From the IMG/VR virus record IMGVR_UViG_2693429719_000003: a stretch of DNA of 27,117 bases; one strand, 5' to 3'. A program made the translations under genes and the position numbers. The DNA comes from a virus. Lineage: Duplodnaviria > Heunggongvirae > Uroviricota > Caudoviricetes. Shown here piece by piece: positions 1-24,266 of the stretch (position 1 is the first letter of the stretch; every line of letters begins with the position of its first letter). The notes beneath the pieces were generated by a model that saw nothing but the letters and a program-made list of their open reading frames with translations, did no database searches and was not told the DNA's origin.

Positions 1-405
1 ATGGATCAGGTCGTTGTTTTTCAAAAGATGTTTGAGCAAGTGAGAAAAGAGCAAAACTTCTCCTGGTTTTATTCAGAATTAAAACATCACCGTATTGCAC
101 ATTACATTTATTATCTGGCTACGGATAACATCAGAATTATTACTCACGATGACACGGTTTTGTTATTAAGAGGAACCAGGAACCTGTTAAAAGTTAGTAC
201 GACCAAGAACCCAGCTAAAATAAAAGAGGCCGCATTGCTTCATATTCGCGGAAAATCTACATTTCGGGAATACTGTTCAACACTGGCAGGCGCTGGCGTT
301 TTCCGGTGGGTTACTGATGTTAATCATAACAAACGCAGTTACTACGCCATTGATAATACGCTTTTATATATTGAAGATGTAGAAAATAATAAACCATTAA
401 TCTAG
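1..405 (+). CDS. DUF1398-family protein (YcgX/YdfO/YbcV-like), host chromosome flank
   Basis: 134-aa ORF starting at base 1; the sequence (MDQVVVFQKMF...YYLATDN...AGVFRWVT) matches my recollection of the E. coli DUF1398 family. In K-12 the DUF1398 gene ycgX lies just outside the icdC end of prophage e14, the same arrangement as here. Confidence 0.75.
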   Translation: MDQVVVFQKMFEQVRKEQNFSWFYSELKHHRIAHYIYYLATDNIRIITHDDTVLLLRGTRNLLKVSTTKNPAKIKEAALLHIRGKSTFREYCSTLAGAGVFRWVTDVNHNKRSYYAIDNTLLYIEDVENNKPLI

Positions 406-612
406 CTAAAGTTGGGAGCTTAAAAAATGCTTCATAATTCAGTAAGGCATTAGCATAATGGAAATAAAAGTGCAGAGACTATCCCTATGGATGATTAATA
501 CTGTCTTTTTATTGCTCCCCATAAATAATCACCAGACCAATACGATCAAATTGATATTTGAAATGTGTTCACTTGACTTTTGATACGTTATTTTATAACG
601 GTTAACATATTT

Positions 613-643
613 ATAAAAACAACGGGCGTGTTATACGCCCGTT
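613..643 (-). terminator. rho-independent terminator downstream of the icd 3' fragment
   Basis: Perfect 9-bp stem AACGGGCGT (621-629) / ACGCCCGTT (635-643) with a 5-nt loop; on the minus strand it is followed by GTTTTT (615-620) and lies about 25 nt past the icd stop codon. Confidence 0.6.
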
Positions 644-666
644 ATAATATTTAACACATGTGGTAA

Positions 667-831
667 TTACATATTTTTGATGATCGCGTCACCAAACTCG
701 CTGCATTTCAGCAGGTTAGCGCCTTCCATCAGACGTTCGAAGTCATAGGTTACGGTCTTGGCGTTGATTGCGCCTTCCATACCTTTAACAATCAGGTCTG
801 CGGCTTCAGTCCAGCCCATATGGCGTAACAG
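667..831 (-). pseudogene. icd: icd 3'-terminal fragment (about 54 codons, isocitrate dehydrogenase C-terminus); attachment-site duplication marking the prophage/host junction
   Basis: Minus-strand translation [53 protein letters not shown], stop at 667-669. This matches the Icd C-terminus; homology stops abruptly upstream (ILL instead of MML) and no icd body is present. Phage 21 and e14 integrate in icd and duplicate this segment. Confidence 0.85.
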
Positions 832-1020
832 TATATAAAAACCATGAATTCAAGTCATTGATATTTAATGATAAAAATTATTTTATTGTCTTTTTATTAG
901 CCAAAATAAACTTTATTCAACCGTTTGATTTCATTGACGTTCGTTTATATTTTGGGGAAAGGTTTTCTCTACCATTTATATCCAAATTACAAGTCTACAT
1001 TTTATTAACATCTCAATACA

Positions 1021-1051
1021 TGTGAGGCCTTGTAGACCTTTGTGAGGCCTT
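1021..1051. promoter_or_regulatory. direct repeat TGTGAGGCCTT x2 (20-bp periodicity), candidate integrase arm-type sites
   Basis: Identical 11-mers at 1021-1031 and 1041-1051, about 190 bp on the phage side of the icd core homology. An IHF-consensus match (AATCAAACGGTTG, minus strand, 918-930) lies in the AT-rich stretch between. Confidence 0.3.
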
Positions 1052-1314
1052 ATGTGTCTCAGTTTTGTCCCACCTTGTATTACGACTTGCATAGCCAATG
1101 AAGATAAATGTGACGACAAACGGCGCAGCAGTCTTCTTTTCCTTCATACTTTCCCCACCCAGCATGCATACCTTCTACCATAACTGTAGTGAATGTCTGT
1201 TATGAGCGAGTAGCGGAAGTTAGGGCTACAAGATGACTAATTAAGTTGCGGTAATTAAGTACAGGTTATGGACTTCCTGATCACGATGCCTTCTAACTCG
1301 TCAGTAGCTGGCTA

Positions 1315-1606
1315 AGAATTGATAACCAGGTAAGCAATTGTGTCTCTCGTGGAGCTTTTAAGCGGGATGCTAACGGATTTAACCCGCTTACTGACGCAGG
1401 AATAATCCGGACAGCGAAGCGGGAGATTCATCATGGTGGAAATGGCAAGTTCAGAATAACCTTGCGGGCCCCCCGCGAAGCAGTTTTTGGTTTGTCGTAC
1501 CATGACTGAATGGTCGACTCATCAAGCCGGAATGTCAGTGAACCACGATTGACGAGCGCCTTGTTGTAGGTGTTCCAGTTGGTGATTTTTAGCTTTTTTT
1601 TGCCAT
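1315..1606 (-). pseudogene. IS903-type transposase, 5' fragment, frameshifted and truncated
   Basis: ATG at 1604-1606 (minus strand) is followed by an A8 homopolymer (T-run 1594-1601 on plus) that shifts the frame after the MAK start. The two fragments appear as ORFs 1431..1658 and 1312..1503 in different frames; only about the first 115 codons are present. Confidence 0.8.
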
Positions 1607-1682
1607 GAGATACTGCTACAAGACCGTAATGTGGTGATCTGATCCTGATATCTGCCAAAAGTTCGATTTATTCAACATAGCC
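1315..1682 (-). mobile_element. IS903-group (IS5 family) insertion sequence remnant: left terminal inverted repeat plus 5' part of the transposase gene, truncated
   Basis: Minus-strand end sequence GGCTATGTTGAATAAATCGAACTTTTGG (1655-1682) matches the IS903 terminal inverted repeat as I recall it (GGCTTTGTTGAATAAATCGAACTTTTG). The downstream ORF fragments (KKKLKITNWNTYNKALVNRGSLTF...; ...MNLPLRCPDYSCVSKRVKSV...) match the IS903 transposase N-terminus. Homology ends near 1315. Confidence 0.85.
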
Positions 1683-1784
1683 CTTTCCAGTTGTAATCCT
1701 TATACAAAAGTTCATCTTTGGCTATATCAGTCTTAAAAATCCCAGTATATTATTTGCCAAACAACACCGGTCTTATAAGGACAT

Positions 1785-1808
1785 GCCCGTGCCCGTGCCC
1801 GTGCCCGG
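1785..1808. repeat. hexanucleotide tandem repeat GCCCGT x3 plus GCCCGG
   Basis: gcccgtgcccgtgcccgtgcccgg read directly in the sequence; a GC-rich microsatellite in an AT-rich region about 70 bp upstream of ORF A. Confidence 0.9.
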
Positions 1809-1817
1809 CTTAATCAT

Positions 1818-1843
1818 TTGACTAAAATCTCAAAATGTATACT
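1818..1843 (+). promoter_or_regulatory. candidate sigma70 promoter for cargo ORF A
   Basis: TTGACT (1818-1823) and a TG-TATACT extended-10-like element (1836-1843); the spacer is short (14 nt), so the call is weak. An AAGGAA Shine-Dalgarno follows at 1862-1867. Confidence 0.3.
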
Positions 1844-1874
1844 GAATAAACACTCTATCTAAAGGAAATTATCA

Positions 1875-2384
1875 GTGAAAGCATCCGATTGGATTCAACA
1901 AAACATACGACACTCAGCACAACTGGAACCTAATACACTCGAAGCAGTATCCGACTTCACTCTTATGTGGTCGATTTTTGAGGCTTCAGAAGCTCATAAT
2001 GAGAATGTTGTAGAGCAGATTGGGGTTCTTTCAAAGCGAGTCGCAAGGGATATGCCATCAGATGCGATCGACTCCCAGTTATCATATTGGTCTAAACGCT
2101 ATATACATGAAAGCGGTGAACCAACAGAGCATTTCAATTACCTCTATTTTAGAGAACTTTCACAAACTGTGAAATCACTTAACGTACTAAGAAATGAAGA
2201 AACTTCTTTTGAAGATAAAATCGAAGTGTGCCTCTTAATTGTCTATAGGTATCGAAATAATTTATTTCACGGTATCAAAGATATCACGTTGCTAAATGCA
2301 CAGGTAGAAAATCTTCGGAACGCAATAGAATTATTACAAATAATTATGCCATATAGCGGGAGATACCTTTTTCTCGGGGCCTAA
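1875..2384 (+). CDS. hypothetical 169-aa protein with an Rx4H (RNNLFH) HEPN-like motif; cargo gene A
   Basis: ORF with GTG start preceded by AAGGAA 7 nt upstream; AT-rich. Motif R127-N-N-L-F-H132 fits the HEPN Rx4-6H signature in a small, apparently helical protein. No recognisable homology beyond that. Confidence 0.7.
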   Translation: MKASDWIQQNIRHSAQLEPNTLEAVSDFTLMWSIFEASEAHNENVVEQIGVLSKRVARDMPSDAIDSQLSYWSKRYIHESGEPTEHFNYLYFRELSQTVKSLNVLRNEETSFEDKIEVCLLIVYRYRNNLFHGIKDITLLNAQVENLRNAIELLQIIMPYSGRYLFLGA

Positions 2385-2404
2385 TTAGCTATATGAAGCA
2401 GTGG

Positions 2405-2434
2405 AGTCTATTTCAATTATAATCTAAATAGACT
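2405..2434 (+). other. stem-loop downstream of ORF A (possible weak terminator)
   Basis: Perfect 9-bp inverted repeat AGTCTATTT (2405-2413) / AAATAGACT (2426-2434) with a 12-nt loop; the downstream T-run is poor. Confidence 0.25.
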
Positions 2435-2752
2435 CACTTCCATTGGTGTTTTGAATTGGTCGATGGGTTTTGTTATGGCTGTCCAATATGAGCGAAGAGC
2501 AGATTGTGTGGTTCAATACAGAATCACGATCCTTTATTAAGATAAGATTCAGCGATAAAGAAGGTTTTTATATTTTAATTTATAAGAAGAATTTTTGTTG
2601 TGCGCCTATACAAATAATTAATTTTATAGTAATGAGTTTCTCAATGACTTATCAAAGTGAAAATCATTCTGGAATGAGGCTAAAAGCGACGCGGAATTAA
2701 AAAAGCTTTCATCTTTGAAATATTGAAGTATTTCCCTCTCTATATCACTAGA

Positions 2753-2778
2753 CTGACAATAACTAAAGAGCTATAATG
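2753..2778 (+). promoter_or_regulatory. candidate promoter for cargo ORF B (consensus -10 TATAAT)
   Basis: Perfect TATAAT at 2773-2778, 32 nt upstream of the ATG; only a weak -35-like CTGACA at 2753-2758 with a short spacer. Confidence 0.3.
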
Positions 2779-2809
2779 CAATTATTTCAAATTATTAAAG
2801 GGTGGGGGT

Positions 2810-4045
2810 ATGAATAGCACGTTAAAAGAACTTGAGAGAAATTGCGCGCCAATAGATTTTATTGACCCATTGGCTCGATTGGTCTTAGATGATTTAGCTA
2901 TGTGGGCAAATGATAATATATACTCAAAACAATCTGGGTGTTTAACTTATGAATTGCCTCTTGATGGAAACATCAATGCAGCGTGTATAAGTTATCATGA
3001 CTCACGCTATCGAACCCATATTAAAATAAACCTGGGAATGGTTCAGGAAATCTACATCCAGTCATTTACCTATCCAGGTTACATTAAATATCTAGAAAGT
3101 GGAAATTGGCATTTCAACGCTCTTGATGAACCCTTTAGTGATGCTGAATTTTTATTCGAAGGTGGCATCCCTCCAAGAGTTAACGCGTCTGACACGGTCA
3201 CTCATATGGTAGAGCTATACAAAAGCATTCCTAACAACAGCAATACCATGTGGACTGATGAAGAATTAATTTGCCGTTTTGCCATGTTCGAATTAATGAT
3301 TGCGTGGATATTTTTTCATGAACTTGCGCATCACGTACAAGGGCACTACAAGATCAAAGGTGAAATAAAAGAATCGGCTACTTATTACGAATTAGATTAC
3401 TCAAGCAACATTAATAATTCCAATCCTGAGGTAACTCCCAGCGTCATCCAAAAGAACATTGACCAGCATGCCCGAGAGATACTTGCAGACCTCGAAGGTA
3501 TGTATTTAACACTCAGAATGATGGTGAGGAATGACACATTAACACCACCTAACACGTTTTTGCTTTTATATGTCCAAACCTCAATGTTTAATGTATTCTA
3601 TAAATTATCTGAGGGAAAGTATGCGGAGTTAGATAGCGTTAAAGTTTCTCACCCCCACCCTGTAATTAGAAACAAATTCGTACACGCCCTGTATGTTTCT
3701 GTGATGAAATGGGAATTGGATAATGATATATACCAAGATTATCGTCACTCTGTTAGCCGAGGTCTTGAATATTATACTGTAAAGTCATCATTGTTAGCTG
3801 GAATGATATGGGCAATGAGACAACCTGATTACAGTCCAGATGTAATGCCCCAATTTCTTAAATTTAGTGATGAGACCGAGCATGCCGCAGATTATAACTA
3901 TCTCAGGGAATTGACCTTAAGCGCTGAAAGGCAATCATCTATCATATCACTCATGCATATCATCGATGATGACTCAGATAATATTTTTAAATTAACAAAA
4001 TTAGACAAGCTATTCACTCATTTTTTAAATGTTAATGAAGAATAA
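2810..4045 (+). CDS. hypothetical 411-aa protein with an HExxH zinc-metallopeptidase motif (FFHELAHHVQGH); cargo gene B
   Basis: Long AT-rich ORF with a G-rich RBS (GGGTGGGGG) directly upstream of the ATG. HELAH at residues 170-174 with further His at 175 and 179 and acidic residues 40-60 aa downstream, resembling ImmA/IrrE (M78)-type or gluzincin motifs. The rest of the protein is unrecognised. Confidence 0.85.
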   Translation: MNSTLKELERNCAPIDFIDPLARLVLDDLAMWANDNIYSKQSGCLTYELPLDGNINAACISYHDSRYRTHIKINLGMVQEIYIQSFTYPGYIKYLESGNWHFNALDEPFSDAEFLFEGGIPPRVNASDTVTHMVELYKSIPNNSNTMWTDEELICRFAMFELMIAWIFFHELAHHVQGHYKIKGEIKESATYYELDYSSNINNSNPEVTPSVIQKNIDQHAREILADLEGMYLTLRMMVRNDTLTPPNTFLLLYVQTSMFNVFYKLSEGKYAELDSVKVSHPHPVIRNKFVHALYVSVMKWELDNDIYQDYRHSVSRGLEYYTVKSSLLAGMIWAMRQPDYSPDVMPQFLKFSDETEHAADYNYLRELTLSAERQSSIISLMHIIDDDSDNIFKLTKLDKLFTHFLNVNEE

Positions 4046-4272
4046 GATACGATGATTAGTGTTCAATTTCACCAGGGATCTGAACACCTGTCATTTGTAC
4101 AGGGCACTGTTACAGTCCTGACAACCCTAGAGTTTAATCAACTCATAGATCTCTAACTCATCACCGACTTAATGTTTATATAGCGGAATGAGCTTTCCAT
4201 GTCAGATATAACAATGTCCGCTTCTGGCACATAGCAGCCCTAGAGACAGTGGCGTAAAGTCATGGAGGACCG

Positions 4273-4298
4273 ATGGGAGGAGGCACAAATCCTCCCAT
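4273..4298. other. perfect 9-bp stem-loop in the B-C intergenic region
   Basis: ATGGGAGGA (4273-4281) / TCCTCCCAT (4290-4298) with an 8-nt loop; it is followed by an A-run rather than a T-run, so it is not a canonical plus-strand terminator. Confidence 0.3.
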
Positions 4299-4417
4299 AC
4301 AAAAAATACGTAAAATCGATAACAGATTGAAATAATTCAATATTCTCACTATCAGAAGCTGACCGGCCAGCCGCAGCACTTTCTTGCAGACGACGAGCCT
4401 GCGGTTTCAACTCCACC

Positions 4418-4451
4418 AGCCCACCAATCATTATTGGGCTTTTTCGTTTTT
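4418..4451 (+). terminator. possible rho-independent terminator between ORF B and ORF C
   Basis: 6-bp stem AGCCCA / TGGGCT with an 11-nt loop, followed by TTTTCGTTTTT (4441-4451). The stem is marginal. Confidence 0.3.
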
Positions 4452-4581
4452 CTTCACCTGCAAGCAAACCGTTGTATCATGGCGGAATGAAGATGAGCTA
4501 GGAATAATCTTATAAATCAGCTCAATATTCATATAAAAACATTTCGAACTTTGGTGTACAAAACTACATAGGGATAACTTT

Positions 4582-5784
4582 ATGTCTCTTCGTTTCAGAC
4601 AAACCTTTACTCTATTTCCTGGCGTTCGACTCAACATTGGCAAGCGTGGAATAAGTGCAAGCATTGGCGTGCCTGGCGCAACTGTCAATGTTGGTAAAAA
4701 AGGGGTTAGAGCAACTGTCGGATTACCGGGCACAGGCTTATCTTATACTACACCTACCTTGCCCTATGATGATGGATACTCAGTTACCAATCCATTAAAT
4801 CCAGCCCCTACAGAACCTCATTTGGAGTCTGGGTCATCTCCAGAAAACACACCATCGAACGCTAAAATATATATGCCTGTAGCTGGCATGAATGAAATAT
4901 CCAGCGCTTCGGTAGAAGTCCTTACAAGTACCTCCCTTTTACCTTTACGAGATTTGATTGCTAAAGCACGAGAACAAAGAGCAGAGATAAAAGCAGATCT
5001 TCAAGAGGCTCTTGCCGAAGAATCAAAACAAAAAAGCGAGCTGGCTCGACGCAAATCAAGTCTATTCCGTTGGTTTTACAAACGACGCATCGCAGAACTT
5101 GAGACACTACTCCCCCTAACCCAAGCTGAGATATCTCGCCTAGTTTCATGGGAAGACAGCACAAAAATAGCCATAACATTCGAGAGCAGTGATGCTTCAC
5201 AGCGCGCATATGCAGCGATGGTCCATGCATTTGATATGTTAAAATCGAGTGTCAAAAAATGGGATATTACTGCAGATAAAGCTACAGACCAGTTTGCTGA
5301 AAGAACATTAGCAACCCGGTCTGTTAATCGTCACCCAGTTACCTTTGATTTTAGTTCAACGGATCTCATTCAATTTACAGGGCGTGCGATGAGGTTTGAA
5401 AATGTAAATGGAGACGATATTTTGCTTTATCCTGGAGTTGCAGTCATACCACGAGCTGATGGAGCATTCGCTCTGATTGATTTACGCGAATTACAAATTA
5501 GTTCAGAATATCTAAGATTCCATGAGGAAGAAGGTGTTCCCAGTGACTCACGCATAGATGGTTATACATGGGCGAAAACGAATAAGAATGGCTCACCAGA
5601 CCGTCGTTTTAAAGACAACTACCAAATCCCTATTTGCATTTATGGAAATATTACTTTCCATTCTCAAACAGGGGTAACTGAAGAATATATGGTATCAAAT
5701 GCAGATGCCGCGCACGCCTTTGCTGAGGCAGTAAAACGCTATCAGATTTCACTCACAGAAACAGAAGCGTTGGTACAAGCCTGA
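4582..5784 (+). CDS. hypothetical 400-aa protein: DUF4236-like N-terminus, central coiled coil, uncharacterised C-terminal domain; cargo gene C
   Basis: N-terminus RFRQTFTLFPGVRLNIGKRGISASIGVPGATVNVGKKGVRATVGLPGTGLSY matches the DUF4236 motif as I recall it. Residues about 120-175 are Lys/Glu/Ala-rich and heptad-like (coiled coil). The C-terminal 220 aa or so are unknown. Confidence 0.85.
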   Translation: MSLRFRQTFTLFPGVRLNIGKRGISASIGVPGATVNVGKKGVRATVGLPGTGLSYTTPTLPYDDGYSVTNPLNPAPTEPHLESGSSPENTPSNAKIYMPVAGMNEISSASVEVLTSTSLLPLRDLIAKAREQRAEIKADLQEALAEESKQKSELARRKSSLFRWFYKRRIAELETLLPLTQAEISRLVSWEDSTKIAITFESSDASQRAYAAMVHAFDMLKSSVKKWDITADKATDQFAERTLATRSVNRHPVTFDFSSTDLIQFTGRAMRFENVNGDDILLYPGVAVIPRADGAFALIDLRELQISSEYLRFHEEEGVPSDSRIDGYTWAKTNKNGSPDRRFKDNYQIPICIYGNITFHSQTGVTEEYMVSNADAAHAFAEAVKRYQISLTETEALVQA

Positions 5785-5826
5785 TTTATCGCCGATATGG
5801 GGACGAATCGTAGCCCCCCCTCGAAC

Positions 5827-5866
5827 AAAAAAAACCTTAAGAACCAGACTATTATGGCTGGTTCTT
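5827..5866 (-). terminator. strong rho-independent terminator on the minus strand (candidate end of the late tail-fibre transcript)
   Basis: Perfect 9-bp stem AAGAACCAG (5839-5847) / CTGGTTCTT (5858-5866) with a 10-nt loop, followed on the minus strand by a T8 run (A-run 5827-5834 on plus). Confidence 0.6.
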
Positions 5867-5883
5867 ATACGGAGGATTTGTTA

Positions 5884-5912
5884 TTGTACAACTCTTCTAT
5901 CTGGTATATTTA
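5884..5912 (+). promoter_or_regulatory. candidate sigma70 promoter for cargo ORF D
   Basis: TTGTAC (5884-5889), 17-nt spacer, TATTTA (5907-5912), about 80 nt upstream of the ATG at 5993. Confidence 0.4.
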
Positions 5913-5992
5913 CGGATAGAACTGTTCAGGCTACTCAATCCTTTTTAAGTACAAATGAACAGATAGAAATAGTTATATTGCAAGGAGCTATC

Positions 5993-6781
5993 ATGCACAC
6001 TGAGTATATATGGCGATACCTTGACATAGAGAAATTCTCTATGTTACTCGAACAAAATGCTTTATTTTTTTGCTCAGCAAAAAATTTTGAAGATCCGTTC
6101 GAAGGTGAATTTGCTTGGGGACATACTGGCTATAAAAAATTCATTGAGACACAGGAAAAACTATGCGCTACTCATGGTGCCGGCATGGACTTAGATCCTT
6201 TCATGGCATTCAATTTAAAGACACTTAAGGAAATAAGCGAGAGGACATATATAAGTTGCTGGCATTGTAACGAACATGAATCTGAAGCTATGTGGAAGCT
6301 GTATTGTAAAAATCCCGCTAAAGGCGTTGTCATAAAATCAAAGAAAAAAAACCTCCAAAGCCAACTTGAAAATAATAATTTAAACAAACTACAATTAAAA
6401 CACGTAAAATACGTAAAAAATTTCTGGATAAAACAATACAATCCAGAATCAGATGTATTCTTTAACAAGAGACCATCTTTCGAATACGAAAAAGAGTTTA
6501 GAGCTATTTTTCAAGAGAATACCTTTAACACTCCACCTGTAAAGGGAAAACTAGTCCCTGTATCTCTTAACAATCTGTTGGAAGAAATAAGGATTTCACC
6601 TTTCGCAGATAAGGATTTCAAAAATGAAGTTTTACAAATTTCAAAAAAATATGGACTAGATCTAAAAGTCAAAAACTCTGAAATTGAAATGCATCCCATC
6701 ATGCATGTTGAGGAAGAAATAATTGCAGAAGGCCCCAATTGGTATCAGTCAAAAATCAGATTGGCAATACGTGATGCTTAA
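5993..6781 (+). CDS. hypothetical 262-aa protein, DUF2971-like N-terminal motif; cargo gene D
   Basis: ATG at 5993 with a consensus AAGGAG Shine-Dalgarno at 5983-5988 (the ORF track's TTG at 5978 is an upstream in-frame extension). N-terminal YIWRYLDIEKFSMLLEQNALFFCSAKNFEDPFEG resembles the DUF2971 signature. Very AT-rich. Confidence 0.8.
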   Translation: MHTEYIWRYLDIEKFSMLLEQNALFFCSAKNFEDPFEGEFAWGHTGYKKFIETQEKLCATHGAGMDLDPFMAFNLKTLKEISERTYISCWHCNEHESEAMWKLYCKNPAKGVVIKSKKKNLQSQLENNNLNKLQLKHVKYVKNFWIKQYNPESDVFFNKRPSFEYEKEFRAIFQENTFNTPPVKGKLVPVSLNNLLEEIRISPFADKDFKNEVLQISKKYGLDLKVKNSEIEMHPIMHVEEEIIAEGPNWYQSKIRLAIRDA

Positions 6782-6884
6782 TCTTATATTGAAGTTTTTT
6801 ATGTCTCCTGCTGAAACTAGCTAAAATTTACCAAGCCGCAGCACGTTATTGCATACAACATGTATGCGGCGTATCTCAAAACGA

Positions 6885-7469
6885 TTACTCCATAACAGGG
6901 ACAGCAGGCCACTCAATATCCGGTGCTACTGATGTATCAACACGGTTCAGCAACACCCGATACTTCTTCCATGCTGCCAGCAACGACGCCTCTTCTTCCG
7001 TTGCGATCTCCAGATCCACAGCATCCTGAAGTGGCGCAATATGCTCATTCGCTGCCTGCATCAGGCTGTTTTTTGTTTCTTCCGCCTCCCGGATCCGGAA
7101 TAGTTTTTCTGCTTCTGCATCTTTCACCCAGGCTGTGCCGTTCCACTTCTGAAACTCCCCTTCCGGGGATAACCAGGTGACATTTTCCGGTAATGAGCCG
7201 AGTTCAGAAATAAATAACGCGTCGCCGGAAGCCACGTCATAAACCGTTTTACCCCGATGATCTTCAACGAGATGCCACGATGCCTCATCACTGTTGAAAA
7301 CAGCCACGAAGCCAGCCGGAATATCTGGCGGTGCAATATAGGTACTGTTTGCTGGCAGACCTGTATGAGGCGGAATATATGCGTCACCTTCACCAATAAA
7401 TTCATTAGTTCCGGCCAGCAGATTATAAATTTTTATGGTCCGTGGTTGTTCACTCATTCTGAATGCCAT
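6885..7469 (-). CDS. tfa: tail fibre assembly protein Tfa
   Basis: 194 aa, matching lambda Tfa as I recall it; its start codon overlaps the stf stop by 1 nt. Confidence 0.95.
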
Positions 7470-10384
7470 TATGCAAGCCTCACAATGTAGTTAAATGCGA
7501 TGTTTTTGACGGTGTTTTCCGCGTTACCAGCAGCGTTAACGGTGATGGTGTGTCCATGTGAGCCAATCGCAACAGAGTGCGTATGAGCACCAATACCGAC
7601 AGTATGTGCGTGAGCACCTGCAGATGCAGCTGTGCCGCTGACACTATGAGTGTGCGCTCCTGCAGCACTTGTATTCACACTGGCCGCAGACACTACCTTA
7701 TGTACTGACCCATTTTGTGACCACTGGCTGACTGCTGATGCGCCTGTGACACTATGAGTATGGTTTCCGGCACTTGCGGCTGTACCGCTCACACTGTGCG
7801 TGTGCGCCCCGGTGTTATTCGTGGATTTAGTGCCGTAATCAAACGACGATGTGGTTTTCGTCCCCAAATCCGTACTGGATGCGCTGGCGCTGTGGGTGTG
7901 CGATTTAATGCCGTCCTGTTCCTGAGACAATACGGCCCGACCACTGGCAGGTTTGCCCTTAATCGTCCAGCCACGCATATCAGGGATCACGCCTGACGGA
8001 TAAGCGGCTGCAAGTTTCGGGTATGCAGATTTGTCAAAAGTCTGCCCCTGCATCAGGGCATAGCCAGACGGAACGGTATCTGATGGCCACGGGATTGGTG
8101 CGCCAGGCGGATAAAACTGCTCTGATGGCGTATAGAGTGAATAAACCGTACCGTCCGTTAACCCTTCCGGCTTATTAGCAGAATATGCTGGTGACGTATG
8201 AATCGTCACGCTGGCATTACTGGTATAATCCCATTGAATATTTACACCAGTCGCATAATTTCCGATTGCAACGTAAATATCGTAAGTATCACCAGATGTA
8301 TTGACCCAGGCAAAATTTGTAAACCCTGTCGATGTGCGCTGCCATAAAGCACCAGTAATCCCCTTCGGATTACCATTACCTGCACGCAAAACAAGTTCAG
8401 ATATACCTGCCTGTTGAGGTGACCCCACGTTAAATCCCGCGCCACCAATCAACGTAATTGAAACAACAGAACTCGCCTGTGGCATGGTTACCGTTGCTAA
8501 TTTGAACCAACCAGCACCACCGCTGAATGACATTGTTGTTGAGTTAAGCGTACCAATATCTTTCGGCGTCAGTGTTATATCCGATGAAAGCGCCTTACCA
8601 TTCACCTTACGGGCAGAAGGTACCCGACCATTCGCATTATCATTAGCTGCTTTCACTGCTTTCGGTGTCGCGGCAAGCGTTTCAGATGCGCTGTTGGTTG
8701 CACTACTGAGCTGGACAATTCCTTTTTGTGCTGTCGTAGCGTCCTGAGCAGTATATTTCCCGTTAGCAAGGTCATAGGCTGCCTTTACCGACTTTGGCGT
8801 TGCCGCCAGCATTTCAGATGTGCTGTTGGTCGCGTTGCTAAGCTGAACTATCCCTTTCTGTGCTGTCGTTGCATCCTGTGCGGTGTATTTCCCGTTAGCC
8901 AGCTCATACGCGGCCTTAACGGCTTTTGGCGTTGCCGCCAGTGACTCGGAAGTGCTGTTAGTCGCACTGCTGAGCTGTACTATCCCCTTTTTCGTCGTGC
9001 TCGCATCCTCAAGCGCCACGGCGGATGCAATATCCTCTGCCCGTTTAGCTGCTGTCTCGGCGCGCGTTGCCGCGGATTCCGCCGTACTTTTGCTCTGAGC
9101 TGCCGCCGTCGCACTGCCAGCTGCCTCTGTCGCCTTCGTGGATGCCGTCGTGGCGCTGCTCTTCGCTGCTGACGCTTGTCTGGTCGCCTCATCTTTTGAA
9201 GCAGACGCAGATGATGCCGATGACGCCGCCGAACTGGCTGACGATGCGGCAGCCGTTTTTGAGGATTCTGCGCTGGTTTCCGACGCTTTCGCGTTCGTTT
9301 CGGATGTCTTCGCTGCGGAAGCAGAACTCGCTGCTGCGCTGGCCTGTTCAGTGGCTTCGCCAGCCTTCGTTGTGGCTGTTGAAGCAGACGATGCGGCACT
9401 TTCTGCCGACTTTCCGGCAGCGGTGGCACTGGCTGAGGCCTGCCCGGCACTTGTTGACGCGGCACTGGCAGATGATGCAGCCGCTGTTTTTGAGCCTGCC
9501 GCAGCTGAGGCACTCTGTGCTGCTGCCGTTTCAGAGGACTTGGCGTTTGTCTCAGACGTCTTTGCCGCCTTCGCGGAATTTCCTGCCGCCGTTGCCGAGG
9601 AAGCTGCACTACTGGCGCTTGATGATGCGTTCGTTTCTGATGATTTTGCCGCCTCTTTTGAAGCCGACGCATCCCTGGCTGAGGTGGCAGCTTCTGACGC
9701 TTTCGTGGTCGCGGTGGATGCAGAAGTGGCGGCTGATTGTTCTGACGCTGCCGCATTCGTTTCTGACGTTTTCGCCGCACCGGCACTGGTAGCCGCCGCG
9801 CTTTTTGAGGACTCTGCAGCGGCAGCACTTTTTGAGGCTTCAGTGGCCTTTGTTGATGCCGTTCCTGCGCTGGAAGACGCTGACTGAGCCGACGACGCGG
9901 CCTGTCCGGCTGACGTGCTGGCTGCACGTGCTGAATCTGCAGCATCAGTCGCACGGGTTGCCGCCTCACTGGCAGATGTGCTGGCATCACTGGCTGACTT
10001 CTTTGCGGCTGCCGTGTTCTGTGCCACCACGGACGCGTTACGCGCCACCTCTTCCACCATCAGTTCAAAACGACGCAGTGCCTCCGGACGGGCATCATCC
10101 TCCGTCATGGCACCGAGAAAATCATTCAGCGTACCGGGTTGAGAATCTTCATACACGGTGATGGTCCCGGCATGTGACGGCGGGAATCCCTTCACCAACA
10201 GAATAACGCTGTACTGACCGTACTCAACGTCCATGCTGTAACGCCCGGCTTCATCCGGATTTTCTGAGGCCAGCGTGTTCACCACCACAGTGGTACTGTT
10301 ACGTTTTGCTTTCAGCTGGATTGTGCAGTTCTGTACCGGTTTTCCTGTGCCGTCTTTCAGTACACCTGAAATCTTTACTGCCAT
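7469..10384 (-). CDS. stf: side tail fibre protein Stf (expanded: long Ala/Ser/Thr-rich region, triplicated 44-aa fibre repeat, His-rich GxHxH C-terminal tip)
   Basis: N- and C-termini match lambda Stf. The true start is the ATG at 10382-10384 ([12 protein letters not shown]...), two codons inside the track ORF. 971 aa versus 774 aa for lambda Stf as I recall it. Confidence 0.93.
8588..8983. repeat. three tandem 132-bp (44-aa) repeats inside stf
   Basis: Protein repeats [41 protein letters not shown] occur three times (residues about 468-599); the DNA is near-identical between copies. Confidence 0.85.
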
Positions 10385-10394
10385 ATTCACCCCA

Positions 10395-10422
10395 CAAAAA
10401 AGCCCGCCTGAACCGGCGGGCT
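10395..10422 (-). terminator. rho-independent terminator downstream of lom
   Basis: Perfect 8-bp GC-rich stem AGCCCGCC (10401-10408) / GGCGGGCT (10415-10422) with a 6-nt loop, followed on the minus strand by T6 (A-run 10396-10401). Confidence 0.6.
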
Positions 10423-10448
10423 GTCATAACACTGTGTTACCTGGCTAA

Positions 10449-11048
10449 TCAGAATTTATAACCGACACCCACGATGAAACCGTCAGTGCGCCAGTCACCA
10501 CTGCCGGAGCCTTCATAAGCAATATCAATGGCCACGGATTCGGTCGGGTTAAACTGCACGCCAGCTCCCCACGCCAGAGACGTGTTGCTGTGGCGACCGT
10601 CATCACTTCCGGTCAGCACGTCGTGCGTTTTCCCCTTGTTGTCAATTACGCGGAGATAATCCCCGGAGAAAGTCGACACACGGCTGTAAGCCACACCCGC
10701 CATCGCATACGCGCTGAACCATTCATTCACGCGCACAGACGGCCCCGCCATTACGCTGAACCAGCGGTTACGAACGGAATCTTCATGCCAGCGGGTATCG
10801 CTGTAATGGGTCAGCTGGCGATTATTGTCTCCTGCATAGCTGAATGACGTCACCATCCCCAGTGTGTCCGTAAACTCATAACGGTATTTCACGTTAATCC
10901 CGTTCAGATCATCGCTGCCGGGAACGTTCGTCGAGGCATGAAGATACCCCGCGCTCAGCGTGGACTGATGTTCAGACGCCCATGCAGGCGCACCGGATAC
11001 GGCCAGACAAATGGCTGCGGACAAAATGGCGGCATAAAGTTTACGCAT
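10449..11048 (-). CDS. lom: outer membrane protein Lom (Ail/Lom family)
   Basis: 199 aa with a signal peptide (MRKLYAAILSAAICLAVSGAPAWA); matches lambda Lom. Confidence 0.93.
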   Translation of the reverse strand: MRKLYAAILSAAICLAVSGAPAWASEHQSTLSAGYLHASTNVPGSDDLNGINVKYRYEFTDTLGMVTSFSYAGDNNRQLTHYSDTRWHEDSVRNRWFSVMAGPSVRVNEWFSAYAMAGVAYSRVSTFSGDYLRVIDNKGKTHDVLTGSDDGRHSNTSLAWGAGVQFNPTESVAIDIAYEGSGSGDWRTDGFIVGVGYKF

Positions 11049-11072
11049 AATTACCTCTCGCTTTTCTGCAAT

Positions 11073-11096
11073 AAAAAAGGCGTCATTTCTGACGCC
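11073..11096 (-). terminator. hairpin plus T-run between J and lom (partial terminator)
   Basis: 7-bp stem GGCGTCA (11079-11085) / TGACGCC (11090-11096) with a 4-nt loop, followed on the minus strand by T6 (A-run 11073-11078). Confidence 0.45.
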
Positions 11097-11114
11097 CGTT
11101 CTGGGTTATAAAAT

Positions 11115-14516
<3,402 letters not shown>

Positions 14517-14573
14517 TCATGCTCCATAAACGATAAAACCGCCCGGAGGCGGTTTCACATAAAACATTTTGCA

Positions 14574-15245
14574 TCAGCGACCAATCACCACAACCTGACC
14601 ACCGTCCCCTTCGTCTGCCGTGCTGATCTCCTGAGAAACCACGCGTGACCCCACGCGCATTTCACCGTACAGAACCGGCAGAACATTGCCCTGGGCAACC
14701 ATGTTATCCAGTGAGGAGAAATAGGTGTTCTGTTTGCCGTTATCCGTTGTCTGTGTACGGGGAGTTCTGGCTTTCGGTGCCAGCATCTGCGCCACACCAC
14801 CGAGCACCATACTGGCACCGAGAGAAAACAGGATGCCGGTCATACCACCGGCCCCAATGGCTGCCCCCCATGCTGCAAGGGTGGCTCCGGCGGTAAAGAA
14901 TGATCCGGCAATGGCGGCAGCCCCTAGGACAATCTGGAATACGCCACCTGACTTGGCCCCGGCGACTCTGGGAACAATATGAATCACAGCGCCATCAGGC
15001 AGAGTCTCATGTAACTGCGCCGTTAACCCGGACGTGCTGACGTCCCGCCCGGCAATCCGTACCTGATACCAGCCGTCGCTCAGTTTCTGACGAAACACCG
15101 GGAGCTGTGTGGCCAGTGCGCGGATGGCTTCAGCCCCCGTTTTCACACGAAGGTCGATGCGGCGGCCAAATCGTTGCAAATCCCCGTAAAGGCAGATGCG
15201 CGCCATGCCCGGTGACGCCAGAGGGAGTGTGTGCGTCGCTGCCAT
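14574..15245 (-). CDS. I: tail tip assembly protein I
   Basis: 223 aa, matching lambda gpI. Confidence 0.95.
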   Translation of the reverse strand: MAATHTLPLASPGMARICLYGDLQRFGRRIDLRVKTGAEAIRALATQLPVFRQKLSDGWYQVRIAGRDVSTSGLTAQLHETLPDGAVIHIVPRVAGAKSGGVFQIVLGAAAIAGSFFTAGATLAAWGAAIGAGGMTGILFSLGASMVLGGVAQMLAPKARTPRTQTTDNGKQNTYFSSLDNMVAQGNVLPVLYGEMRVGSRVVSQEISTADEGDGGQVVVIGR

Positions 15246-15886
15246 TTGTCGGTATACCTCTCTCGTTTGCTCAGTTGTTCAGGAATATGGTGCAGCAGCT
15301 CGCCATCACCACAGTAAATGGCGGCATGATTCGGCACCGATGAACCAAAACAGCACAGCAGCACATCGCCCGGTTGTGCTGATGACAACGGCACCTGATA
15401 CAGCCCTGTGGCCTCCAGATTATCCAGATAGAGATTCTGACCGTGACGCCACCAGTCATCCTCGCGATGAAAATCCGGCATCTCAATCCCCGCCAGATGA
15501 TAAGCATCCCGGAACAGCGTGTAACAGTCCGTCACCCCGTGCTCAAAGCGCCGCCCGGTGAGATGCGGCACACAGCGGAACTTATGAATCGTCCCCCGGC
15601 AGACCAGCCACCACGGCAAATCACTCTGCACCTGCAGCCGCCGGTCGGCCTCACTCAGCCAGGGCAGACCACCGGGGTGGCTGTGGACCAGCGCCACAAT
15701 CTCACCGTGCAGTGTTGCCTGCAGCCAGTCATCCGGCGACATCCGGAAATACGCCTCCGGCTCACCGGAGATATTCACGCAGGGAAAATATCTTTCCCCT
15801 TCCGGCGTTCTCACCACGAAGCCACACGACTCCGCTGGCGCACATCGCCGGGCGTGCGCCAGAATCGCTGATTCTGTCTGTGTCAT
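15143..15886 (-). CDS. K: tail tip assembly protein K (JAMM/MPN motif HSHPGG plus NlpC/P60-like C-terminal part)
   Basis: Matches lambda gpK from its N-terminus MTQTESAILAHARRCAP. The ORF as it stands is 247 aa and its 3' end overlaps the I start by about 100 nt, so the exact C-terminus is uncertain. Confidence 0.9.
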   Translation of the reverse strand: MTQTESAILAHARRCAPAESCGFVVRTPEGERYFPCVNISGEPEAYFRMSPDDWLQATLHGEIVALVHSHPGGLPWLSEADRRLQVQSDLPWWLVCRGTIHKFRCVPHLTGRRFEHGVTDCYTLFRDAYHLAGIEMPDFHREDDWWRHGQNLYLDNLEATGLYQVPLSSAQPGDVLLCCFGSSVPNHAAIYCGDGELLHHIPEQLSKRERYTDKWQRRTHSLWRHRAWRASAFTGICNDLAAASTFV

Positions 15887-15891
15887 GGGAT

Positions 15892-16590
15892 TTACTGCGA
15901 AAGTTTGTTAATGGAAAGGAAGCCGCCAAAGTTGCCGACGTTATTGCGGAACTTACAACCGCTCAGGCATTTGCTGCATTTATCCTTCGTGATATCGGAC
16001 GTTGGCTGGTCATATTCATCCGCGACCGCCGGACCGTGATAACCGCACTCATCGCCGCGATAGGTCCAGGTGCAGGTGTTGGCCAGCATGATACGTCCCG
16101 GAAAAACAGCGCCGTCCGTTTCCGTCGGCGTGGACAGTACAAAAGAGGCACTCACCGCGCTCAGTTCGCTGCACTGCTCAATGCGCCAGCGGCTGATCAC
16201 CTCCAGCTCCGGATCGGCGTCACTGTTTCCGTTGACGAAGTTCACCGCATCCAGAAAACGGGCGTAAACCTTACGCCGGACCACCGTTCCGCCGACCAGA
16301 CTCTGCAGATCTTCCGCCATCCCGGTGACCATACCGTACAGGTTAGAAACCGTCAGCGTGGGGCGTGTACTGGTGCCTTTGCCATTCAGTTCAAAACCAC
16401 TCCCCTGAATGGGATACGGCTGATACTGTCGCCCCTGCCAGGTGACCGGCTCACCTTTTTCGTTCTGCTCATTACAGAAAAAATAACGTTCTCCACCGAC
16501 CTCTGTCAGATCGATTTCCCAGAGCACCACGCTGGCCGACTGCTCCGCACGGGTGCATTCATTCAGTGTTTCCTGCCGGATATCCTGCAT
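15892..16590 (-). CDS. L: tail tip protein L
   Basis: 232 aa, matching lambda gpL. Confidence 0.95.
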   Translation of the reverse strand: MQDIRQETLNECTRAEQSASVVLWEIDLTEVGGERYFFCNEQNEKGEPVTWQGRQYQPYPIQGSGFELNGKGTSTRPTLTVSNLYGMVTGMAEDLQSLVGGTVVRRKVYARFLDAVNFVNGNSDADPELEVISRWRIEQCSELSAVSASFVLSTPTETDGAVFPGRIMLANTCTWTYRGDECGYHGPAVADEYDQPTSDITKDKCSKCLSGCKFRNNVGNFGGFLSINKLSQ

Positions 16591-16919
16591 CAGTTCACCA
16601 CCTGTTCAAACTCTGCGCTGAACTCAACACGCAGCATACTGACCCGCGACGACCATTTTGCGCAGGTCACCTTTATCTGCCGCCACTCATAAGGCGGCGT
16701 CCACAGAAAGGATTTCCAGCCCCCGTGCTCAGCCAGAAACGACTCAAGCGCCGTGGCCTCCCAACGGGGAACAGAAAGCGTCACGCTGTACGTTTTCAGG
16801 TCGGCATTCAGCCCGGCAGGCGCTCGCTGGGAATAGCCATCACCAAAGCGCACCTTTCTTACGGAAGGGGCCGAAGCCACATCCATACCGGGTTTCACTT
16901 TCCAGCGGAAGGTTTTCAT
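16590..16919 (-). CDS. M: tail tip protein M
   Basis: 109 aa, matching lambda gpM; overlaps L and H by one to four nt. Confidence 0.95.
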   Translation of the reverse strand: MKTFRWKVKPGMDVASAPSVRKVRFGDGYSQRAPAGLNADLKTYSVTLSVPRWEATALESFLAEHGGWKSFLWTPPYEWRQIKVTCAKWSSRVSMLRVEFSAEFEQVVN

Positions 16920-19465: not shown

Positions 19466-19892
19466 ACCGGACTCCTCCTGCGATCCCTTCTGATACTGTC
19501 ATCAGCATTACGTCATCCTCCGTCATGTCCGCCACATCCGGGGAAGCGGGGATAACTTCATTCCCGTCCGGGCCAAAACGAACGCCTCCGGCAAGCCCTG
19601 CCGCTTTCTGCATCAGCACATCATCTTCAGGCTCTTCGTCAGCCTCGCGCCGGTTCAGCAGACTGAAATCCAGCGGATGCATCTCCGGATCGCTGAAAAA
19701 CAGGCTGAGCACGGTGTACGTCAGCCCGGAAAAGTGCATATCCAGCAGAACATCATGAAAATAATGGGTACTGTAAAAGCGGTGCCAGTCGGCATACTCC
19801 GTGGATGACATCCCGGCAAGCATGGCGCGCCAGTCGGGTCGCCCCATCTCACGCGCCAGTTTCAGGGCAAAACTCAGCTCACCGTCGAACAC
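19458..19892 (-). CDS. T: tail assembly chaperone T reading frame (expressed as a G-T fusion by -1 frameshift)
   Basis: 144-aa ORF in the -1 frame relative to G; matches the lambda T region. Confidence 0.85.
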   Translation of the reverse strand: MFDGELSFALKLAREMGRPDWRAMLAGMSSTEYADWHRFYSTHYFHDVLLDMHFSGLTYTVLSLFFSDPEMHPLDFSLLNRREADEEPEDDVLMQKAAGLAGGVRFGPDGNEVIPASPDVADMTEDDVMLMTVSEGIAGGVRYG

Positions 19893-20296
19893 TTTCCCGC
19901 AGAAACAGGCTCTGCAGGCCCGGCGTCCTCTGCCTGTTCAGGAGCATCATTCACCACAAACTCATACATACCGGACAGCCGGTACACCACGTTTTCAGCA
20001 TGAGAAATTGCCTCCGTGGGCCAGGTGGTAAGCACTTCCTGCTCAATCTGTTTAACGGCTTCATTCATGGAAGGCAGCTTTGTCTTCTTCGGATGGTTAT
20101 GCCACAGGGACATCGCCACCAGAAACGCGCCGGTTCTGATGGCGTCTTCCACAGTAAACTTCCGGTTGCTGTCTGACTCCGCCTGTTCTGCCTGCCGTTT
20201 CATCAGGGCGAGATGCTCAATACGCTGCAGGGCTGACAGTTCAGAAAGCGTGACGGTCACGCCGTTATGTTCAAATGATTCGGTTTTCAGGAACAT
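19874..20296 (-). CDS. G: tail assembly chaperone G
   Basis: 140 aa, matching lambda gpG. Confidence 0.95.
   Translation of the reverse strand: MFLKTESFEHNGVTVTLSELSALQRIEHLALMKRQAEQAESDSNRKFTVEDAIRTGAFLVAMSLWHNHPKKTKLPSMNEAVKQIEQEVLTTWPTEAISHAENVVYRLSGMYEFVVNDAPEQAEDAGPAEPVSAGKCSTVS
19892..19898 (-). other. programmed -1 ribosomal frameshift slippery heptamer GGGAAAG (G to G-T)
   Basis: Minus-strand GGGAAAG (plus CTTTCCC at 19892-19898), about 5 codons before the G stop at 19874-19876, as in lambda. Confidence 0.8.
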
Positions 20297-20311
20297 CGCT
20301 GACTCTCCGGA

Positions 20312-21052
20312 TTAACTGGCGGTGACGTTGATTTCTGCAACCGCAGCAAACTCACCATTACCGGATACGACCGGAATGTTGACCTTGCCTGCAGCAACGC
20401 CGTTCACGGTGATGGTCATACCACTGACCGACACGGTGGCTTTTGTTTTATCCGCAGACACCGCACGGAAGCTCTTGTCGGTTACACCTTCCGGCTGGAA
20501 TGCCACGGTCAGCGTGGTGCTCTGCCCTTTCACTACGGAAGCACTGGCTGGCGTTACCGTCATGCCGGTTGCTGCCGTCACCGTACTGCGATCTTCAGCC
20601 ATTGACGGACGGCCCACATTGGTGACCTTCACCGTGCGGGTGATCACTTCCTTCGCCGTCACCGCTTTACCGATACTGCTGACCCAGCCACGGAACACAT
20701 CGACCGTGCCGTTCGGGAAGCGGATTTTATAGGCACGGGTATCACCTTCATTAAACCACGCCAGCAGCGCCTGCTGCCCCTGCTCTCCGGGCATCCACGC
20801 CAGCGTGAAGCTGGTATCTCCGGCTGATTTCTGCCCCTGCCCGGTCGCAGTCCAGTCCGCATCTTCATCATCGAGATAGCTGTCGTCATAGGACTCAGCG
20901 GTCAGTTCGCCGGGCGTCAGGTCTTTAACTTTTGCCAGACGCGACCAGTCAACGTCTGAAAGCGGGTTCGCATAAGGGTCACCGTTCCCCTTATAAACCC
21001 ACAGTGTGGTCCCGGCACCTTTCACCGGCATTACAGGATTTGGTACAGGCAT
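20312..21052 (-). CDS. V: major tail tube protein V
   Basis: 246 aa from the ATG at 21050-21052 (MPVPNP...) with a GAGGA Shine-Dalgarno; matches lambda gpV. The track ORF extends 10 codons further upstream. Confidence 0.95.
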
Positions 21053-21059
21053 ATCGTCC

Positions 21060-21455
21060 TCACATTTCATAGGTAATGACATAAGTCAGATCGGCAGAAC
21101 TCCACAGGCCCGCATCATCGTCGCGCCGGTAGTCATAGCCACTGGCCACCATACTGGTGATCAAATCTGACAGTGCCGGGATATCGCTCATCACCGGATA
21201 AATCCGGGACTCCATCCACGAATCCAGCTCTGAATCCGGCACCTGAGCAGGCAGGAAAACTTCAATATGCAGCTCCGCCTGCCAGGTATCGCTGTCCAGC
21301 TCTTCGCCCGTGTATTCAGCGCCGGTGAGATAAACGGCAACTGCCGGAAAATCCTCCTCATCAAAAACAGCGGGGCGACCATCAAAAAGCGTCGCCCCGG
21401 TGTCATGTTTTTCCAGTGTATCCAGTACGGCTGCACGGAGTTCTGTATGTTTCAT
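21060..21455 (-). CDS. U: tail terminator protein U
   Basis: 131 aa, matching lambda gpU. Confidence 0.95.
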
Positions 21456-22030: not shown

Positions 22031-22041
22031 ACATCCCCCTT

Positions 22042-24257: not shown

Positions 24258-24266
24258 AAACATCCC

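Follow-up and report, generated by a model that had tools for sequence, protein, structure and literature searches.

The DNA examined here is IMG/VR virus record IMGVR_UViG_2693429719_000003, a stretch of 27,117 nucleotides assigned to the Caudoviricetes and referred to below, at its full length, as the window. It includes the right end of a lambda-like prophage integrated at icd, and the subject of this analysis is the AT-rich island found there at 1875-6781. The island comprises four open reading frames (ORF1 to ORF4), all on the plus strand, which encode proteins of 169, 411, 400 and 262 amino acids. They are flanked by an icd fragment (icd') marking attR on one side and by the tail fibre assembly gene tfa on the other, and they converge with tfa (6885-7469, minus strand) and stf (7469-10390, minus strand). 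An earlier note on this DNA, made from the letters alone, had described four such genes running against the late operon; their coordinates and strands are confirmed, and so is its remark that the region is far more AT-rich than the structural genes. The G+C content (GC) of 1875-6781 is 0.382, compared with 0.573 for the structural and late genes at 10391-27117. The values for ORF1 to ORF4 are 0.382, 0.371, 0.431 and 0.340, and GC at third codon positions (GC3) is 0.30-0.36. The genes are separated by gaps of 425, 536 and 208 bp.

The attachment site is marked by the 3' fragment of icd (667-819, minus strand), the equivalent of icd'/icdC. In the near-identical locus of E. coli SC418 its annotation is partial isocitrate dehydrogenase, and it aligns to icdC and the icd 3' end of K-12. 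The chromosomal gene ycgX occupies 1-405, at the start of the window. At the other boundary of the slot, tfa is the last gene of the late operon; it matches Pfam Caudo_TAP (2.6e-45) and its 3' end is approximately 90% identical to lambda tfa. Annotated genes of the SC418 locus include tfa, tail fibre, Lom and J, and the equivalent slot in the K-12 element e14 holds pinE-mcrA-icdC. The earlier note is thus correct in placing the island between tfa and attR of a lambda-like prophage that is integrated at icd.

For each of ORF1 to ORF4, homologues are conserved across genera, and these are therefore real genes rather than chance reading frames. Each start has a Shine-Dalgarno-like sequence ahead of it (AAGGA, GGGTGGGGG, AGGGA and AAGGAG, in order), in agreement with the ribosome-binding sites previously assigned to them. 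The best sigma-70-like site, TAGACT-17-TATAAT (2749-2777, plus strand; a consensus match only, 10 of 12 positions), lies 33 bp 5' of the ORF2 start. Autonomous expression is better supported by comparative evidence, as blastn shows that conserved upstream DNA accompanies, and moves with, ORF1, ORF2 and ORF3 in other elements. An Rfam scan of the island for regulatory or antitoxin RNAs found none. All four proteins lack a hydrophobic stretch of transmembrane length.

Mosaic structure of the slot

A blastn map of window positions 1-7500 against the collected comparison loci resolves this end of the prophage into blocks of different origin. Chromosomal DNA with ycgX covers 1-662, and icd' together with the prophage right end (616-1223) is approximately 95% identical to a common E. 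coli prophage, represented by strain YA-1. Block A (1191-2496, about 1.3 kb) contains ORF1 and the remnant of a transposase similar to that of insertion sequence (IS) IS5; it is 92.6% identical to a Pectobacterium integrative element and 87% identical to AlpA/DUF927 islands of Enterobacteriaceae. The transposase remnant (DDE_Tnp_1_5; 1312-1658, minus strand) is frameshifted: an open reading frame at 1312-1503 matches Pfam PF13737 (3.1e-6), and PGAP annotates a frameshifted partial transposase in SC418. Block B (2481-4221) consists of ORF2 with its own flanks and is 88% identical over 1743 bp to lambdoid prophages of Enterobacter hormaechei; within it, 2649-4053 has 84% identity to a Serratia defence island. 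Block C (4213 to beyond 7500) carries ORF3, ORF4 and tfa and runs on into stf. This is how the prophage end is commonly built, and the identity to E. coli prophages is 97-99.6%. Parts of it are also found elsewhere: 4436-5802, with ORF3 alone, is 90% identical to Klebsiella prophages, and 5999-6773, with ORF4 alone, is 82% identical to a P2-like phage. Blocks A, B and C adjoin one another directly, sharing just 8-16 bp at the junctions.

The complete four-gene arrangement is present in one of 5426 complete E. coli genomes, that of SC418. From 4214 onward (ORF3, ORF4, tfa) the sequence recurs at 99.4-99.5% identity in dozens of E. coli genomes; ORF3 is found at 99% identity or more in 122 of the 5426 genomes, and ORF4 is present in 122. 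The common form of the prophage carries a DUF3800 gene and a GIY-YIG-like gene in place of ORF1 and ORF2. In YA-1, locus positions 6066-7923, which correspond to window 1223-4213, encode, on the minus strand, the DUF3800 protein and a 209-amino-acid protein that weakly matches GIY-YIG. These two genes are alternative cargo of the slot, and they too are uncharacterised.

Operon membership would be expected to appear as co-occurrence across divergent genomes. This is not seen, and each of the four genes is found alone elsewhere. The block map and these solitary homologues point to separate acquisition and rule out an operon, so the island is very probably a mosaic of independently acquired single-gene modules. 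The earlier note had suggested several such modules, and this has held up; its competing idea of one four-gene system has not, since the blocks abut and each gene occurs by itself in other mobile elements. In the comparison across related prophages that it had proposed, ORF3 and ORF4 travel together within block C, and ORF1 and ORF2 are replaced in the common form.

ORF3 and ORF4 are bracketed by a 36-nucleotide hairpin-like direct repeat (CCGCAG...CTGCGG). Copy 1 is at 4369-4404 and copy 2 at 6834-6869, just 3' of the tfa stop codon, both on the plus strand and 78% identical to each other. Both copies are kept in every examined E. coli locus that reaches far enough upstream of ORF3. The repeat may be a trace of the insertion or duplication by which the ORF3-ORF4 pair arrived.

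The four cargo proteins

The motifs previously named for the four proteins (Rx4H, HEPN-like, in ORF1, HExxH in ORF2, DUF4236 in ORF3 and DUF2971 in ORF4) were all called correctly. The accompanying statement that none resembles a nameable protein can be revised: ORF4 belongs to DUF2971 and the PADLOC candidate family PDC-S31, ORF2 is a distant homologue of Lit, and ORF1 looks like a HEPN protein, weakly linked to PD-T4-5. A PADLOC scan, one of the checks that had been suggested, gave a clear family match for ORF4; PD-T4-5 (for ORF1) and Lit (for ORF2) matched only weakly.

ORF2 (2810-4045, plus strand) encodes a predicted zinc metallopeptidase with the active-site motif HELAH at residues 170-174 (3317-3331). 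The model combines a mixed beta-sheet, an active-site HExxH helix and a downstream glutamate on a second helix, as in gluzincins (thermolysin-like peptidases), and ORF2 is assigned to this fold on the basis of that model. A word-indexed search retrieved relatives in eight clusters; an exhaustive profile search found 118 representatives, of which 39 are full-length at E<=1e-30. Among 85 relatives, H170, E171, H174, E223, A226, D227, H281, P282 and R287 are invariant, giving the motif order HExxH...ExxAD...HP..R. PADLOC Lit is matched by 41 of these 85 relatives (best 2.9e-8) and Pfam Peptidase_U49 by 11. When the 85-sequence profile is aligned by hhalign with Lit of K-12 e14, the probability is 94.2% (E 1.2e-7, 136 columns), and the alignment spans the beta-sheet, the HExxH helix and the ExxAD helix; homology therefore extends beyond the motif. 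A shallow profile of eight sequences reached 45% probability over 29 columns, and the relationship is clear only with the 85 relatives. By profile comparison, ORF2 is thus placed in a sister family of Lit (Peptidase U49). Common to the two are a beta-sheet at the N-terminus, the helix with HExxH and, after it, the helix with ExxAD, and both are single genes in icd-integrated prophages. They differ in size (411 amino acids in ORF2, 297 in Lit), in an extra conserved helical C-terminal region of ORF2 that bears an invariant HP(H)P..R motif, and in position, ORF2 lying at the prophage end opposite to that of e14 lit. A sequence search of the PDB with ORF2 returned nothing, and Foldseek found no significant match of the model among the viral structures of BFVD.

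The genomic contexts of ORF2 homologues are those of defence cargo. The Serratia homologue sits among a Shango SngC helicase (3.8e-281), an HNH protein, an MkoC-like helicase and a type I HsdR, in an island of Shango, Mokosh-like and type I restriction-modification genes; the Enterobacter homologue lies 3' of the lambdoid O/P replication genes and adjoins a SIR2-like gene. A homologue of 26% identity is cargo of an AlpA/DUF927/Phage_CRI satellite, where its neighbours are a toxin deaminase and a protein with a DUF2357/PDDEXK_7 nuclease domain. In the case of Lit, EF-Tu is cleaved once the Gol peptide of the T4 capsid appears. By analogy, ORF2 is most plausibly a latent protease switched on by a phage product.

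ORF4 (5993-6781, plus strand) encodes a 262-amino-acid DUF2971 protein resembling ADP-ribosyltransferases (ARTs). It exceeds the gathering cut-off of Pfam DUF2971 (PF11185; 7.5e-7, 30.8 bits, cut-off 22) and matches PADLOC PDC-S31 at 1.3e-20. DUF2971 has been analysed as a predicted ADP-ribosyltransferase family close to DarT and AbiGi (PMC12522546). IWRY, FEDPxEG, YxSCW and KRxSFxxExEFRA are invariant in ORF4, a homologue of 81% identity and an Acinetobacter phage homologue of 33% identity. In these three sequences, ART motifs I to III can be recognised as IWRY (residues 6-9), Y86-x-S-C-W and E166-x-E168-F-R-A, the ExE being encoded at 6488-6496. Motif I carries R rather than H; the histidine of this motif is poorly conserved in DUF2971 (PMC12522546). 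A sequence search of the PDB with ORF4 gave nothing. The 81% homologue is found alone between gpS and gpV of a P2-like phage, and a DUF2971 gene lies just 5' of the terminase genes of an Acinetobacter phage. The lactococcal DUF2971 protein Aristaios confers phage resistance with an abortive-type phenotype (PMC11381338). Both Aristaios and ORF4 are single DUF2971 proteins, ORF4 with an ART-like core and conserved ExE, and they are likened by the shared domain rather than by direct alignment; Aristaios has 316 amino acids and is encoded on a lactococcal plasmid, whereas ORF4 has 262 and comes from an enterobacterial prophage. It should be noted that PDC-S31 is itself only a candidate defence family.

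In the RefSeq/PGAP annotation, the DUF2971 gene (12537-13277 of the SC418 locus) starts at an internal methionine, Met17 (window 6041), giving 246 amino acids. The ATG at 5993, with its AAGGAG ribosome-binding site, agrees better with the family alignment and is taken as the right start, since IWRY falls at residues 6-9 and the RefSeq start cuts motif I; a TTG at 5978 would give 267 amino acids. The ORF3-ORF4 block also terminates another prophage, which is integrated at yejM/tRNA-Pro in E. coli AR216.2b. In this prophage, as in several viral contigs, a frameshift interrupts ORF4, and ORF3 is intact.

ORF1 (1875-2384, plus strand; GTG start) encodes a 169-amino-acid HEPN-like protein, a predicted RNase toxin. 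Its Rx4H motif is R127-N-N-L-F-H132 (residues 127-132, encoded at 2253-2270). RNNLFHG is invariant, and IVYRYRNNLFHG.K is unchanged in 12 homologues down to 31% identity, in keeping with the R-N-x-x-x-H form of the Rx4-6H motif of HEPN domains. In the PDB, the profile of the family finds the HEPN region in a CRISPR-associated protein (8y7f, WRNSVAHG; E 0.019), and UniRef names a 95% homologue 'Apea-like HEPN domain-containing protein'. No Pfam family, the HEPN families included, matches ORF1. The PADLOC model PD-T4-5 is matched at 2e-4 (18.6 bits) over profile positions 150-220 of 309 only; four of the 12 family members reach the model, and a significant full-length match was not obtained. PD-T4-5 is a distant AbiF/D relative according to its discoverers (PMC9519451). 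The ORF1 family shares with AbiD/AbiF, PD-T4-5 and HEPN toxins an invariant Rx4H of the R-N-x-x-x-H-G type and differs from PD-T4-5 in being much smaller (169 amino acids, compared with about 309 profile positions). From its motif and these matches, ORF1 is read here as a minimal HEPN RNase-like toxin.

Solitary homologues of ORF1 are found in AlpA/DUF927 (P4-like) islands beside a 1909-amino-acid STAND NTPase with weak similarity to Avs1b. Another lies among the cargo of an integrative and conjugative element, the Pectobacterium element with a relaxase and integrases. DNA homology stops 86-112 bp past the ORF1 stop codon. No MNT-type antitoxin or other partner was seen near ORF1 in the examined loci. 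A conserved small reading frame 3' of ORF1 was considered as an antitoxin and rejected, as the small reading frames downstream of it elsewhere are unrelated. About 70-90 bp 5' of the ORF1 start there is a hexamer repeat, (TGCCCG)4 (1784-1807, plus strand), of which SC418 has three copies in pairwise alignment with the window. This variable-number repeat in a putative regulatory region could modulate ORF1 expression.

ORF3 (4582-5784, plus strand) encodes a 400-amino-acid protein with an N-terminal DUF4236 domain (PF14020) at residues 3-56 (3e-21, 76.1 bits, cut-off 27; encoded at 4588-4749). The full length is covered by phrog_17982, a PHROG family with no assigned function. The other approximately 340 residues have no match in Pfam, NCBIfam, PADLOC or the PDB by sequence and profile searches. 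An AlphaFold2 model built from a 20-sequence alignment was unusable (mean predicted local distance difference test score 46.8, predicted template modelling score 0.19), and no fold search was made from it; it hints at beta-hairpins at the N-terminus, a helix of some 78 residues and, at the C-terminus, a domain rich in beta-strands. The family is large, with at least 960 homologous clusters at 90% identity; it evolves slowly, and its members are usually located at prophage ends. Searches of the literature for DUF4236, PF14020 and the RefSeq accessions yielded no functional information; the matches to PF14020 are Plasmodium gene identifiers.

Homologues of ORF3 occur singly in varied settings: in Klebsiella prophages, at the end facing smpB and beyond the tail fibre genes; in Serratia between lptG and a beta-lactamase-family gene; on the Phaeobacter chromosome; and in another E. 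coli prophage (OkiPb01701), beside the Q antiterminator gene and on the opposite strand. A full-length homologue of 32% identity lies just 3' of the large terminase gene of a Microcystis phage, in the same orientation. In most of 35 viral-contig loci, ORF3 is within 0-4 kb of the contig end. Its neighbours include umuDC-like genes, SRAP, integrases, invertases, tail genes, tail fibre chaperones and DinI. In Klebsiella-type prophages a gene encoding a 162-amino-acid Peptidase_S24 (UmuD-like) protein recurs in convergent orientation about 170-450 bp 3' of ORF3 homologues, often with impB/mucB/samB (UmuC-like); SRAP and DinI are also common neighbours. This suggests that SOS-related cargo shares the prophage end occupied by ORF3.

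Possible anti-phage function and competing explanations

The region is read, with a probability of about 0.6, as a cargo ('moron') or defence hotspot in which single-gene cassettes of toxin type have collected at the right end of the lambda-like prophage in icd. Catalytic sites of three classes of single-gene abortive-infection toxin (HEPN RNase, Lit-like protease and ART) are conserved in three of the four proteins, and two of these three have relatives in bona fide defence islands. Prophages have been described as main reservoirs of defence genes in E. coli (PMC9519451). By homology and neighbourhood, defence is plausible for ORF1, ORF2 and ORF4, and the odds are even or slightly better that at least one of them acts against phages. 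ORF3 is the gene for which defence is least supported, and an anti-phage role for it is doubtful; it may tentatively, and with low confidence, be regarded as some other factor of benefit to the prophage, acting in exclusion or host modulation.

In the mechanism proposed, successive recombination events would have filled the slot with independently mobile single-gene cassettes, and expression of the cargo genes from the prophage would not depend on the late operon. Three or more of the products would be latent toxin-type enzymes, each working as a single gene to exclude other phages or to abort their infection. ORF1 would use its HEPN Rx4H site to cleave RNA. ORF2, like Lit, would remain an inactive zinc protease until a phage product appears, and would then cleave an essential host factor, which in the case of Lit is EF-Tu, so that translation stops. 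For ORF4, the activity would be ADP-ribosylation of nucleic acid or protein, which has been proposed for DUF2971/Aristaios and demonstrated for DarT. ORF3 would stand apart from the others, as a soluble and very conserved protein with an N-terminus of beta-hairpin repeats, a long helix and a further, C-terminal domain.

Several observations weigh against the defence hotspot. The links of ORF1 to known HEPN and defence families are weak (E 2e-4 to 0.02). ORF2 itself does not pass the curated Lit models: Pfam U49 (PF10463) has no match at E<=0.1, NCBIfam NF007238 gives 16.4 bits (equivalog cut-off 274 bits), and PADLOC Lit gives 17 bits over 21 residues of the active-site helix only. In SC418, the only other genome with the full island, ORF1 is truncated ahead of its motif by a 1-bp insertion in a run of T (at about window 2203-2206), and the RefSeq product has 112 amino acids and no HEPN motif; the copy in the window is intact. 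The alignments of 11 of 40 sampled E. coli copies of ORF4 cover 788 bases instead of 789, and in three loci, the yejM/tRNA-Pro prophage among them, the gene is confirmed to be truncated. These frameshifts in ORF1 and ORF4 indicate that selection is not strong, or is weak or intermittent. The conservation of ORF3 is unusual for an arms-race gene, its neighbourhoods have neither a recurrent partner nor an enrichment of defence genes, and the DUF4236 N-terminal domain alone is found in many lytic phages (of Klebsiella, Brevundimonas and Acinetobacter). A scan of the island for promoters and terminators found nothing enriched over shuffled sequence. The earlier note had given each gene a plausible promoter; sigma-70-like sites number 13, compared with 17.6 expected from shuffles, and only the one before ORF2 stands out.

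The frameshifts, together with the IS remnant in block A and the great rarity of the full island (one genome of 5426), could also indicate selfish or decaying cargo, in which the cassettes are carried along in a recombination hotspot, or persist as addiction toxins, with no benefit to the lysogen. This is improbable: the catalytic motifs of ORF1, ORF2 and ORF4 are invariant down to approximately 15-33% identity and ORF3 is 65-70% identical between gammaproteobacteria and alphaproteobacteria (Paracoccus, Phaeobacter, Sedimentitalea), which implies purifying selection on function.

Lysogenic conversion has a small probability. In this case the ORF2 protease and the ORF4 ART would be toxins or effectors directed against eukaryotic hosts or competing bacteria. 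Lambdoid prophages of enterohaemorrhagic E. coli carry effector loci in the same tail-fibre-end slot, and the zinc proteases NleC and NleD are prophage-borne effectors. Among DUF2971 proteins, approximately 18% have been predicted as effectors, and one from Legionella is regarded as a putative effector (PMC12522546).

It is equally improbable that some of the genes, ORF3 especially, serve the lytic cycle of the phage or counter host defences. The terminase-associated homologues in the Microcystis phage (ORF3) and the Acinetobacter phage (DUF2971) are in favour of such a role, as is the occurrence of DUF4236 in lytic phages, but the genes of the window are transcribed against the late operon, and the lone chromosomal ORF3 homologues in Serratia and Phaeobacter have no phage genes in the flanking 5 kb.

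A single cooperating system (for example, sensor plus effector) formed by all four genes, or by the pairs ORF1 with ORF2 or ORF3 with ORF4, is very improbable: the genes are adjacent and co-oriented, and ORF3 and ORF4 are neighbours wherever the locus was examined, but this linkage is confined to one near-identical DNA block (97% or more), 208-536 bp gaps and block junctions set the genes apart, and homologues of ORF1 and ORF2 never adjoin each other in the other examined loci. As a two-gene system, ORF3 plus ORF4 was rejected on co-occurrence. ORF3 homologues of 52-95% identity lack ORF4 in 30 of the 35 viral loci (the exceptions being five E. coli copies at 99% identity or more) and in Klebsiella, Serratia, Phaeobacter and E. 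coli OkiPb01701; the P2-like phage has an ORF4 homologue by itself; and ORF4 is often truncated where ORF3 is intact.

As a reading of the island, the defence hotspot belongs to a well-known kind, the prophage end that collects single-gene toxins. Like the P2/P4 hotspots, the lambda b region and e14 pin-mcrA, the slot is variable and AT-rich, extends from conserved phage genes to the attachment site and holds exchangeable single-gene cassettes, and in the common E. coli form part of it contains different genes. It differs in that three of the four island proteins belong to no curated defence family. ORF4 adds a member to a family already described, and ORF1 and ORF2 are divergent variants missed by current curated models. 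The literature searched contains no published description of this slot, gene set or these proteins. Nothing in the island overturns expectations, and if no gene gives a phenotype it would be ordinary moron cargo.

Most prophage-end content is annotated as hypothetical, and the island offers four small candidates that can be cloned singly. The Lit-like family of ORF2, missed by the curated models, could show how suicide proteases diversify their triggers. Also on offer are a minimal HEPN protein with no visible antitoxin, an enterobacterial DUF2971 ART and a very widespread and conserved DUF4236 protein, and the clean block structure illustrates the assembly of a hotspot cassette by cassette. 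Taken jointly, two further proposals are possible, with the odds against them: that ORF3 represents a large family of undescribed activity and fold, present in gammaproteobacteria, alphaproteobacteria and a cyanophage, and, separately, that ORF2 represents a second branch of Lit-related, trigger-activated suicide proteases. Such an ORF2 branch would have a different C-terminal sensor domain and hence another phage trigger or host target, and either proposal, if true, would add a new single-gene mechanism of immunity or host manipulation.

Neighbouring features

The sole strong Rfam match of the scan is IS009 (RF02111, 203 bits, E 4e-50) at 6928-7126 on the minus strand, wholly within the tfa coding sequence. 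The adjoining gene stf encodes a 973-amino-acid side tail fibre protein; its N-terminal half is very long, repetitive and rich in Ala, Ser and Thr, and this gives rise to long spurious reading frames in the other frames and to a strong AT skew at about 8500-10000.

On the chromosomal side, an 867-bp segment with iraM and ymgK is missing from the window by comparison with SC418 and K-12, the junction lying near 615/616 (600-640). The breakpoints of this gap lie at two copies of the hairpin sequence AACGGGCGTG..ATACGCCCGTT, which suggests that the segment was probably deleted by recombination between hairpin repeats. The chromosome side differs from SC418 by a few per cent and the prophage side is nearly identical to it; the same prophage is thus present in different strain backgrounds.

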